NCBI GenBank assembly: GCA_965218085.1
Contig: CBDCKF010000001.1
Span: forward strand, 619,983 to 683,982
DNA: 64,000 nucleotides
Origin: Terriglobia bacterium
Lineage (GTDB): Bacteria > Acidobacteriota > Terriglobia > 20CM-2-55-15
Direction: 5' to 3'
Made by a program: the position numbers and the translations under genes. Below are positions 23,382-25,472 of the stretch, in pieces (the first letter of the stretch is position 1; every line of letters begins with the position of its first letter). The notes under the pieces are model-generated. The model did not search any database and had not been told where the DNA came from. It saw nothing but the letters and a program-made list of their open reading frames with translations.

Positions 23382-25472
23382 ATCCCGGTAGGAGGTGAGA
23401 TCGCTCGCACCCCCTCCGGACAGAACGGCTCGTACCGGCCAGGTAAGCCGCTCCTCGATCAGCGAGTAAACTCCAGTTTAAGATTCCGCTCCGTGTAGTC
23501 ATGGAGAAAGACAAGTCCGTGGCGGCGGAACCACTCCAGACTTAGGACGAAGCGAACTTCCCGTCGCAGGACGGATTGCCACGCACTCATCCGCATCCAG
23601 GTGCGGTGGGCGTAATACATCGGTGCCCCAGCTCGAATCATCATCCGTTGGAACTTGGCCGGCTTCTTCCATTTCTTTAACTGCATGGAACGGAGTCGGC
23701 TTCGGATGAATGCATCCAGCTCTTGGAATATCTTACGGAACTCCTGGATGCGATTGTACCCGACCCAGCCTGCAAGATATTCGTTGAGACCGGCAATCAC
23801 CTGGGACATCGATTGCCCGTTATTCCGCCGTGTCCGGGATCGGACCTCTTGCACAAAGCGCTTGCGCGCCCGTGTACTGACCCGAATCTGGCCCCGCAGG
23901 ATCTGGAATCCGACAAACTCCACATCCTTCATCGGCGCCACCCGGCTCTTGTCCCGGTTGACGTGCAATCCGAGTTCATCTTCGAGGAGTCGAGTTATGC
24001 TCTCCATCACCCGTCGAGCTGCCCGCTCGGTCTTTAACAGGATGACGAAGTCATCGGCCCACCGGCTGAACCGGTGGCCCCGCCGCTCCAGTTCCTGGTC
24101 GAGCTCGTTGAGCACGATGTTGGATAGGATCGGCGAGACCGGGGAGCCCTGTGGACATCCCTTGTCCGTCTTCTCGACGACACCCTCTACTTCAACTCCC
24201 GCCTTCAGCGCCCGCGCCACCATCGTCACGAGCCGCTCATCCTGGATCTTCCGTCGAATGAGCTTCAGGATCAGGTTGTGAGGAATCTCGTCGAAGAAGC
24301 TCTCAATGTCCAGCGATGCACACCACTCGTAGCCTTCCACCACCGCTTTCCGTGCATGGCGGATGGCCTGGTGTTGGCTCTTCCCAGGTCGAAACCCGAA
24401 GCTGGACCGGCTAAAGTCACCTTCAAAGATCTCCGTCAACACTGTGTGGAGACTTTGACTGACTACGCGATCCATGACCACGGGTATACCCAACTTCCTC
24501 TTCTTCGGACTGCCCGGCTTGGGGATCAGGACCCGCCTTGCGGGCTTGAAACGGTATGTCCCGGCTTCCAGCTTTGCCTGAATTCGTGCGAGAAGCTCGT
24601 CTTCTCTCTCCTGGAAAGCGTCCACCGACATGTTGTCTACTCCGGCTGAACCGGCGTTGGCCCGAACCTGCTGCCATGCCCGGTAGAGTCGCCCCGGGTT
24701 GTAGACCCGTTCCATGGCTCCAACAACTTTCACTTCACTTTCTCCGTGACTCTCTACCGCCAGGAATGGCCGGGGATGGTTGGTATTGGCGCCGGGCCCG
24801 GACTGCTGCTAACCTCGCCGGGCCTCCGGTTCGGTGCTCGCGCGGAGCTCGCTGCCCCCATCGGTTTGCTAGGCCCTAAATCCACCCACTGAATCGACTT
24901 CCTGATGGTGTCACTCTCGCCTCTCGTCCATGACTTCCCACCGCCGGATAGCGATCTCCGGTGGCCCGGGTCTTCCCGGTCGTCAGGGTTTTCTCCTCCG
25001 CTCTGTTACCAGGCTTCATCGGCCCTGAGTCTTCAGTACTACCCATGGATCTGCCACCCTCTGCTTCCTCCCCGCTCCGGGGTCGCCGTTCGCGGTTTGG
25101 TTTTCAATACCGGGTCTCGGCGGACTGGATAACCCAATGTCCTTTGAGCGTCTGGGTGGACGCACCCACCGTGGGTCCCGATATCGAAGCAATAGGGCTT
25201 CCCGGGGTAAGACACGCAACCCCCTCGTATACCGTCCGGCTTCAGCTCCCTTCGGTGACTACGGTCGGATATCGGGACTCGCTCTCTTACGCCTGCTCGT
25301 CCCCCTCCGGGCACCCATCTAGCCGGTTCGCTGTTCGCTACGTACACGAGTTCTGCCTCATGCTTCTTCCGGACGCCCCATCTCTGAGACTGCCCTTGCC
25401 TTGTTGGTGTTCGCCTTCCGTCCGATCACGGTGGCTTTCCTTCCTTCAGTTGGCGTGCCATGCCCGGCACAC
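23382..25472 (-). mobile_element. Group II intron (minus strand) carrying an RT/maturase ORF in domain IV. The 3' boundary is supported by domain V/VI; the 5' boundary is approximate, with GUGUG at 25472 and an alternative GUGCG at 25165.
   Basis: Domain V-like GAGCGGCUUACCUGGCCGGUACGAGCCGUUC (AGC triad) starts 5 nt after the IEP stop. It is followed by a domain VI helix with a bulged A 7 nt from a ...GGGAU 3' end. The intron-encoded protein carries YADD. Confidence 0.7.
23459..24733 (-). CDS. Group II intron-encoded reverse transcriptase/maturase (no endonuclease domain; 424 aa)
   Basis: RT domains 0-7 present (RVLIPKPGSPKKRKLGIPVVMDRVVSQ...; FDEIPHNLIL; RWADDFVIL is the YADD box), followed by a maturase/X domain (LNEYLAGWVGYNR). 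Confidence 0.9.
   Translation of the reverse strand: MKVVGAMERVYNPGRLYRAWQQVRANAGSAGVDNMSVDAFQEREDELLARIQAKLEAGTYRFKPARRVLIPKPGSPKKRKLGIPVVMDRVVSQSLHTVLTEIFEGDFSRSSFGFRPGKSQHQAIRHARKAVVEGYEWCASLDIESFFDEIPHNLILKLIRRKIQDERLVTMVARALKAGVEVEGVVEKTDKGCPQGSPVSPILSNIVLNELDQELERRGHRFSRWADDFVILLKTERAARRVMESITRLLEDELGLHVNRDKSRVAPMKDVEFVGFQILRGQIRVSTRARKRFVQEVRSRTRRNNGQSMSQVIAGLNEYLAGWVGYNRIQEFRKIFQELDAFIRSRLRSMQLKKWKKPAKFQRMMIRAGAPMYYAHRTWMRMSAWQSVLRREVRFVLSLEWFRRHGLVFLHDYTERNLKLEFTR

Follow-up and report, generated by a model that had tools for sequence, protein, structure and literature searches.

A class C-like group II intron probably homed to the right end of an IS200/IS605-family remnant in a Terriglobia genome

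Introduction

Class C (IIC) group II introns of bacteria are recognized by a domain V (DV) with a distal stem 2 bp shorter than in IIA and IIB introns, a stem-loop replacing intron-binding site 2 (IBS2) in the 5' exon, an epsilon' motif AGGAA, a 3- to 4-bp pairing between exon-binding site 1 (EBS1) and IBS1, a CGC triad, and an abbreviated size (Toor 2006, PMC1702495). The known target types of group II introns are homing sites, terminators, and attC sites (Zimmerly and Semper 2015, PMC4424553). A phage intron matching the D1D4-3 model has been described in the typical IIC position after a terminator (PMC12350094), and insertion directly behind terminators has also been reported for introns of the protein types g6, U1, and U2, the neighbours of class C on the protein tree (Miura et al. 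2022, PMC8919778). Here we describe a 2,091-nt intron related to this group in a 64,000-nt stretch of DNA, called the window below, from a Terriglobia bacterium (GenBank assembly GCA_965218085.1, contig CBDCKF010000001.1, positions 619,983 to 683,982), where it occupies window positions 23382 to 25472 on the minus strand.

Some introns are tied to other mobile systems. IIC-attC introns such as S.ma.I2 are an IIC sub-lineage inserting at the attC hairpins of integrons, and IStrons are single composites of a group I ribozyme at the left end and an IS605-type insertion sequence (IS). The TnpA transposase of the IS200/IS605 family recognizes the ends of its element as hairpins on one strand of single-stranded DNA (ssDNA). 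Cyanobacterial IS605 elements contain group II introns whose protein carries an endonuclease (En+, RT-HNH) inside the IS (Kapitonov 2016, PMC4810608), and the clustering of ssDNA-dependent elements has been remarked on, with nothing more on IIC introns and IS200 (PMC7923331). In the searchable literature we found no report of a link between IIC introns and IS200 elements, the nearest being these two papers. The best explanation for the locus, to which we give a probability of roughly 0.8 from sequence comparisons, is that a class C-like, hairpin-targeting intron homed to the right end of an IS200-family remnant.

Intron boundaries and RNA domains

The intron starts with GUGUGCC at 25472 and ends with ...CCGGGAU at 23382, and both ends are fixed because homology stops there in many related copies. 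In BLASTN comparisons, the similarity to two related loci (L003 and L004) begins exactly at GUGUG, and the similarity to five loci (L001 to L004 and L021) ceases at 23380-23382. An alignment of nine loci from metagenome-assembled genomes (MAGs) of Terriglobia, Desulfobacterota, and Gammaproteobacteria turns conserved at GTGYGCC.GGCATGG, corresponding to 25472, and the sequences upstream are unrelated. The last intron base is fixed at ...GAU by copies with a 3' exon not starting with T, among the 3' ends of 56 copies listed, and the boundaries GUGYG...AY are common to the homologous copies. A preliminary description of the locus had proposed these same ends, together with a GUGCG at 25165 as an alternative 5' end, which we reject, being located downstream of the Rfam domain I match described below and inside the conserved intron.

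That description had also made the intron depend on a consistent domain fold, and RNAalifold, run on 28 homologous 5' halves, returns 154 consensus pairs, and compensatory changes are seen in 72 of these. Domain I (25202-25472, about 270 nt) is closed by the helices 25467-25463/25206-25202 and 25459-25453/25217-25211, with compensatory changes in the closing pairs, and contains a match to the Rfam family group-II-D1D4-3 (RF02001) at 25212-25390 (64.1 bits, gathering score 32, E 1.7e-10), which also matches 7 related loci. Within this match, the epsilon' bulge reads GGAAGAAG in the window copy and in L002, and GGAGGAAG or GAAGGAAG in most relatives. The putative EBS1 lies in a terminal loop of domain I (25287-25290) and reads GUAA here and GUGR in most relatives. 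The GUGR loop is complementary to the exon consensus U-Y-A-Y at positions -4 to -1, and its first two bases (G and U) show the top pairing excess with exon positions -1 and -2; the assignment is based on this consensus complementarity rather than on covariation, which gave no signal at the variable exon position -3. In the window, the IBS1 sequence UGAU pairs with GUAA at 2 to 3 of the 4 positions.

The RNAalifold fold, mapped to the window, places a domain II-like region at 25053-25201, including an insertion of about 60 nt that is specific to the Terriglobia copies. It is followed by a conserved multi-hairpin core (24927-25049), which is closed by 25049-25043/24933-24927, contains ...GGGUAGUAC..., and has 85 to 89% nucleotide identity to distant homologs. 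A domain IVa-like stem-loop (24759-24906) and then a GGAG Shine-Dalgarno sequence precede the open reading frame (ORF). With the enlarged domains II and IVa, 739 nt lie ahead of the ORF and about 816 nt of the intron are non-coding in total.

The stop codon of the ORF (23461-23459) is followed by 5 nt (UCGAG) and then by the 31-nt DV (23423-23453), in which a basal helix of 9 bp, including an AGC triad and a U.G pair, is followed by an AC bulge and by a distal helix of 3 bp with the loop UGGCC. Domain VI (DVI, 23385-23419) starts 3 bases past DV and has a bulged A, the predicted branch point, at 23389, which is 7 nt before the last intron base at 23382, and a GAU tail leading to the 3' splice site. 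Both domains had been placed here in the preliminary description, and their pairing is upheld in 26 homologs, where 96.1% of the cells are paired and 9 pairs show compensatory changes; none of 500 shuffles is as good, and slid controls reach at most 51% paired cells. All 13 pairs of DV are kept, with 2 basal pairs covarying from CG/UA to UA/AU, and 7 pairs of DVI have compensatory changes, its basal helix varying from CCGG/CCGG to CGGG/CCCG. The window sequences of DV and DVI are identical to the lineage consensus. The DV/DVI covariance model that had been named as a check, Intron_gpII (RF00029), has no match in the window even at E<=10 (3 kb) and none in the nine related loci at the gathering threshold, and the two domains are therefore established through covariation instead. 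Judged from its sequence, the element is a group II intron with a six-domain RNA anatomy.

The intron-encoded protein

The intron-encoded protein (IEP) of 424 amino acids (aa) is encoded at 23459-24733 on the minus strand, starting from a GTG at 24733 (418 aa from an ATG at 24715), and comprises a reverse transcriptase (RT), an X/thumb domain, and a C-terminal DNA-binding-like region. It matches the Pfam domains RVT_1 (E 2.4e-35) and GIIM (E 3.1e-17) and the NCBIfam model TIGR04416 for group II intron reverse transcriptase/maturase with 367.6 bits (cut-off 300). Neither a cysteine nor an HNH motif is found in the 60 C-terminal residues after the X domain, in agreement with the lack of an endonuclease (En-less) noted in the preliminary description, and the alignment of the IEP to the En-less GsI-IIC RT covers its full length. 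About 70 homologs share the same length of 424 aa, and the ORF is full length with all RT blocks.

The active-site motif, previously given as YADD, reads WADD (RWADDF; window 24046-24060, IEP residues ~225-229), as in 116 of the 120 closest database relatives. Since the lineage is evidently proliferating, this variant must, as far as the sequences tell, be functional, and it may be of interest for the engineering of group II RTs.

Insertion sites and class assignment

To describe the targets of the lineage, we combined 120 metagenome loci, collected with a conserved 34-nt domain I pattern, with genome loci, giving 96 distinct 5' exons. A stem-loop is present at 94 of these 96 sites, mostly GC-rich and with 8 to 10 bp, and ends 5 to 10 nt before the splice site in 84 of them. 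Under stricter criteria, the hairpin is found at 82 of 94 sites, compared with 11% of 1,640 control positions on the same contigs, and a second hairpin follows 3 to 19 nt further upstream at 50 of 94 sites, compared with 3.5% of the controls. The hairpin sequences are unrelated between sites, even for the near-identical introns L003 and L004, indicating that structure and not sequence is shared. At exon position -2, 70 of 76 sites have A, and at position -1, 72 of 76 have C or U; the first 3' exon base is mostly U.

In a comparison with solved structures, the IEP is closest to the GsI-IIC RT (301.8 bits) and the Eubacterium rectale (E.r.) IIC RT (254.8), followed by LtrA (ML, 124.8) and TeI4h (CL, 105.1). 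Together with these closest solved relatives, the RF02001 match, the 3-bp distal stem of DV (ACC/GGU), which is invariant in 26 sequences, and the hairpin in the place of IBS2 lead us to describe the intron as class C-like. The AGGAA form of the epsilon' motif is present in most relatives, with AAGAA in the window copy and L002. An early suspicion, based on the AGC triad and the size, that the intron is not of class C was given up in view of the solved structures, the distal stem of DV, and the statistics on the hairpins. The habit of inserting just after stem-loops, which had been ascribed to the intron from its letters, is borne out, whereas class C proper does not fully fit, as taken up below.

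Copies in L001, L002, and L021 are 96.6 to 99.6% identical to the window copy and are found at different loci in Terriglobia MAGs, which indicates a recent spread of this very sequence type. The intron appears to be a complete, mobile-type bacterial retroelement that is probably still mobile. The copy in the window might itself be a dead relic, once mobile but stranded in a decaying region and no longer splicing or moving. Both neighbouring genes are fragments, no promoter-like site is found in 22800-26300, and the imperfect IBS1-EBS1 pairing is accompanied by the substitution in the epsilon' bulge; but the full-length ORF with all RT blocks, the consensus sequences of DV and DVI, and the near-identical copies elsewhere argue the other way, and we consider a relic somewhat unlikely.

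The 5' exon and a probable IS200-family remnant

Two tight hairpins precede the 5' splice site in the window. The target hairpin hp2 (25479-25501, 10 bp, UACCGCCCGC-UGA-GCGGGCGGUA) is followed by the tail CCUGAU and the splice site at 25473, and its geometry is that of the subterminal right-end hairpin of IS200-family elements. The upstream hairpin hp1 (25508-25526, 8 bp, AGGCCCCC-UCG-GGGGGCCU) matches the second right-end hairpin of IS200-family elements, for example, in L033 and L147. The whole arrangement of hp1, a 6-nt spacer, hp2, and the CCUGAU tail is closely similar to the right end of L033, located behind a tnpA gene. Folded as ssDNA, the 98-nt 5' exon reaches -27.8 kcal/mol (z = -4.26; none of 200 shuffles as good), and there are only 17 comparably strong GC hairpins in the 64 kb.

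About 250 nt upstream, a segment at 25716-25790 on the minus strand (...UAUAACUCACAACGGUAAG[CCACCGCC-UCU-GGCGGUG]AGACUCGAAGAGGUUCGACCGUCCC) resembles an IS200-family left end and aligns, including the hairpin flanks, to the left ends in L005, L049, L033, L077, L147, and L100. With this alignment, the L033-like order of hp1, hp2, and tail, and truncated genes on both sides, we infer that the intron landed on the right end of a transposase-less IS200/IS605-family derivative of about 318 nt (25473-25790, minus strand), the right terminus of which forms the 5' exon, in a region with deletion or rearrangement. Since no tnpA gene is found in the window, the 5' exon can only be a transposase-less derivative or remnant; apart from an insignificant EWQCQSH, similar to KWECKYH and located where it would be expected, there is no trace of tnpA. 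No second copy of the IS200-like element is present in the 64-kb window.

Alternatively, the hairpins could be ordinary Rho-independent terminators of the upstream gene, so that the intron would follow the textbook class C habit and IS200 would have no part in the window. The preliminary description had called the stem-loops terminator-like. In favour of terminators, class C introns are known to insert behind them (PMC1702495, PMC8919778), a DUF6152 gene precedes the hairpins on their own strand, and the window is free of tnpA. However, neither stem is followed by a T tract, and the terminator scan makes no call for either of them. The DUF6152 gene (25781-25963, minus strand) moreover breaks off after 77 of the 98 profile positions, over 250 nt further upstream, and the stretch between it and the hairpins opens with the segment that aligns to IS200-family left ends. 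The layout of two hairpins, spacer, and tail is that of IS200 right ends. We therefore regard terminators as unlikely here, and the most fitting interpretation of hp1 and hp2, on sequence grounds, is the right end of a remnant of the IS200 family.

Other candidates were tried for the double hairpin. Neither the loops nor the flanks are compatible with attC sites, guanidine-II-like tandem hairpins, or arrays of repetitive extragenic palindromes (REP), and strong hairpins are rare in the window. The hairpins being a part of the intron or co-mobilized with it was rejected as well, near-identical introns following unrelated hairpins and tandem copies abutting DVI. A DUF6152 ORF continuing through the left-end-like hairpin after a frameshift was considered, but the Pfam match is not extended.

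Association of the lineage with IS200/IS605 right ends

The alignment of 5' flanks revealed conserved coding sequence ahead of the hairpins, and this sequence encodes the C-terminus of Y1 transposases of the IS200/IS605 family, with scores of 124 to 129 bits on PF01797 for full-length examples. Upstream sequence of 250 nt or more is available for 84 distinct sites, and in 31 of these tblastn finds a Y1 transposase gene directly upstream, ending 29 to 198 nt before the splice site. All 31 genes are located on the intron strand and none on the opposite one, and the transposases span several sub-families with identities of 31 to 86%, which indicates independent insertion events.

Intron-free copies define where these IS end. 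Six of them with identical TnpA in one 6.48-Mb Desulfobacter genome have the right end ...GGAGGTACTTGACT; they are common from TAATTGCCC...[left-end hairpin] to ...[GCCACC..GGTGGC]..[AACCGC..GCGGTT]..[GCCTCCGGCTCTGCCGGAGGT]ACTTGACT and divergent beyond, and two more intron-free sub-families likewise end with ...TGACT. The intron-bearing L077 reads ...GGAGGTCGCTGAC, followed by the intron and then by a T and unrelated flank, i.e., ...TGAC, intron, T. Because the intron-free copies end with ...TGACT, the intron is located either exactly at the IS right terminus or a single base within it; the hairpin before it is the subterminal right-end hairpin, and the second one is the IS hairpin preceding that.

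The intron and the IS200-type element could also move as one composite, a group II counterpart of the IStron, which would replace repeated homing by co-transposition. Two loci (L005 and L049) share the IS right end and the intron and differ in both flanks, and the intron is always found on the transposase strand. Against this, all 12 examined loci with related intron-free IS (eight separate sites) end with ...TGACT, closely related introns follow unrelated hairpins without an IS (L003 and L004), and the flanks behind the intron diverge from their first or second base onward, so that there is no IS end beyond the intron. For TnpA, a right-end hairpin would be required on the far side of the intron, where none is seen, making a composite very improbable.

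Tentatively, and at slightly less than even odds, we propose that the intron belongs to a distinct C-like sub-lineage, with an AGC triad, a WADD RT, and enlarged domains II and IVa, which prefers the right-terminal hairpins of IS200/IS605 elements and inserts between ...GAC and T. This lineage-level link is the most interesting result, the element itself being of a known kind. If true, a retroelement would parasitize an ssDNA transposon, in parallel to the IIC-attC introns of integrons, and would obtain safe sites to land, transcription by read-through from tnpA, and transport between genomes. The association would also offer a natural system for what an IIC-type ribonucleoprotein recognizes in a DNA stem-loop, would allow testing whether the intron insertion alters the cleavage of the right end by TnpA, and gives a view of mobile elements using one another as safe havens.

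A different arrangement is seen in L008, a contig without the 5' exon, where an IS200-type transposase gene (L008:1620-2115) lies about 90 nt downstream of the intron 3' end. This suggests an intron inserted after the left-end hairpin of an IS rather than the right-end one.

Assessment and proposed mechanism

Several points weigh against a class C-like intron on an IS200 remnant, or against parts of this reading. The remnant rests on about 75 nt of left-end similarity and on the hairpin architecture, and searches with tblastn and a custom HMM find no tnpA in the 64-kb window. The figure of 37% IS association was obtained on short metagenome contigs, in which repeated elements are over-represented. 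An intron-less allele, which the preliminary description had proposed to look for, was not found: in two other assemblies this locus also contains the intron, and a third contig is broken off at the intron 3' end. Two of the IIC hallmarks are absent, the triad being AGC (GAGCGG) in all 56 copies examined in place of CGC, and the ribozyme, judged by its long pre-ORF and non-coding parts, not being abbreviated. The intron is filed as class C-like by comparison with solved structures rather than with a reference phylogeny. Splicing and retromobility are inferred from the near-identical copies at several loci, and the window copy, with its partial IBS1-EBS1 pairing and AAGAA in place of the conserved AGGAA, could splice poorly, its own activity being uncertain.

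The remaining possibility, an RT of a non-intron retroelement such as a retron, a defense-associated RT (DRT), or a diversity-generating retroelement (DGR) with coincidental RNA motifs at its flanks, is refuted, as the retron and DRT matches are weak and sub-threshold (best retron model 80 bits, cut-off 235, versus 367.6 bits for the group II model), GIIM is present, and the RF02001 match, the covarying DV and DVI, and the homology-defined GUGYG...AU ends all belong to an intron.

For the homing of the intron to the IS200-family remnant, we propose a mechanism in which the steps of reverse splicing and priming are taken from IIC and other En-less introns (PMC1702495, PMC4424553, PMC8919778). 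An IS200-family derivative would first have lost its transposase and cut the DUF6152 gene, and the intron would then have homed to its right terminus. The spliced intron RNA with its bound protein would reverse-splice into DNA that is transiently single-stranded at the replication fork, preferentially into the lagging-strand template next to an extruded hairpin, and the nascent DNA strand would prime cDNA synthesis. The site would be picked mainly by the DNA stem-loop a few bases upstream, aided by 3 to 4 bp of EBS1-IBS1 pairing (UYAY) and by the IBS3 base U. The shared dependence of IS200 ends and IIC-type introns on ssDNA hairpins would explain a favoured landing pad, and the recognition of hairpins on one ssDNA strand by TnpA gives a rationale for the strict strand bias and the frequency of IS sites.

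Nested and tandem introns

The conserved core contains a site at 25040/25039 (...GGGUA/GUACUG) that is empty in the window and carries an extra insertion in L001, L003, and L004. In L004 (1487-3640) and L001 (about 2000-3696), the insertion is a nested second group II intron starting with GUGCG and encoding an RT of 475 and 451 aa, respectively, with WADD, making these loci twintrons. The nested intron of L001 is itself interrupted by a DDE transposase gene, and the insert at the same core site in L003 (2719-3640) has only about 920 nt. The 97%-identical copy in L021 (870-1912) is truncated at the window-equivalent position 25378, beside a DDE_Tnp_1 transposase gene.

Head-to-tail tandem introns are found in L023, L030, L067, L079, and L103, with the second copy directly after ...ACCAGAU or ...CCGGAU. 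As several copies sit directly after the ...ACCAGAU of another copy, DVI itself serves as the hairpin, and DVI with its 7-nt tail is, by its sequence, a mimic of the target hairpin. A scan of viral_contigs with the intron pattern found nothing.

Genomic neighbourhood

The element sits between gene fragments and is without bearing on host physiology. The truncated DUF6152 gene upstream ends just before the left-end-like segment. A full-length DUF6152 gene at 21774-22193 on the plus strand and this truncated paralog flank the intron region in opposite orientation, with an inverted repeat (21918-21982 and 25929-25993, 82% complementary). The 3' exon (23158-23379, minus strand) contains a C-terminal redoxin/TlpA-like fragment, the N-terminal half of which is missing, with a weak match to Pfam Redoxin (E 0.037, profile positions 89-139 of 148). 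It has an in-frame TGA at 23221-23223 (...ARDGKI-TGA-TQHTGFASKEQFELEIKALL), through which the frame runs on, and is most likely a pseudogene. The protein of the other flank is not on record in databases.

Further away, three to four copies of direct repeats of 60 to 300 nt, spaced 853 to 918 nt, are found at 35718-38477 and 43601-43859. They correspond to tandem paralogous genes of a secreted-protein family (...LKEWWLGNPHPRGSLWHSDALHVIERLRW...), which appears, judged by eye, to be related to a 279-aa ORF beside the intron (22254-23093). Inverted duplications (26232-27282 with 55851-56898, and 28347-29376 with 58339-62742) are 72 to 88% complementary, lie about 29 to 33 kb apart, and cover a gene with a metallo-beta-lactamase fold and EF-hand motifs and its neighbours, which indicates a large segmental duplication in inverted orientation.

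Comparison with known systems

The intron shares with the class C introns B.h.I1, O.i.I1, and GsI-IIC an En-less protein of about 420 aa with IIC RTs as the nearest solved relatives, a 3-bp DV distal stem, an epsilon' bulge of the AGGAA type in most of its relatives, U as IBS3, the Rfam D1D4-3 match, and tandem insertions after the DVI of another copy. It differs from them in its AGC rather than CGC triad, the DV pentaloop (UGGCC), the WADD motif, the lack of an RF00029 match, and about 816 nt of non-coding sequence with enlarged domains II and IVa. The target hairpins of the lineage, furthermore, are mostly without a U tract and often IS200 ends.

The protein types g6, U1, and U2, for which Toro and Martinez-Abarca (2013) is a further source, are reported to insert after terminators and to stand beside class C on the protein tree, and might be a possible home for a C-like intron with such atypical features.

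If it prefers IS200 ends as proposed, the intron would be specialized, like IIC-attC introns such as S.ma.I2, on ssDNA hairpins that belong to a different mobile system; its target is a transposon end and not an integron recombination site, and no attC features are seen. With IStrons and the cyanobacterial IS605-borne introns, the intron shares the physical tie to an IS200/IS605-family transposon. Unlike in IStrons, the right terminus is occupied by an En-less IIC-like intron, and each partner is also found without the other; unlike the cyanobacterial RT-HNH introns, which lie inside IS605 elements, the intron is En-less and placed at the right terminus of the IS.

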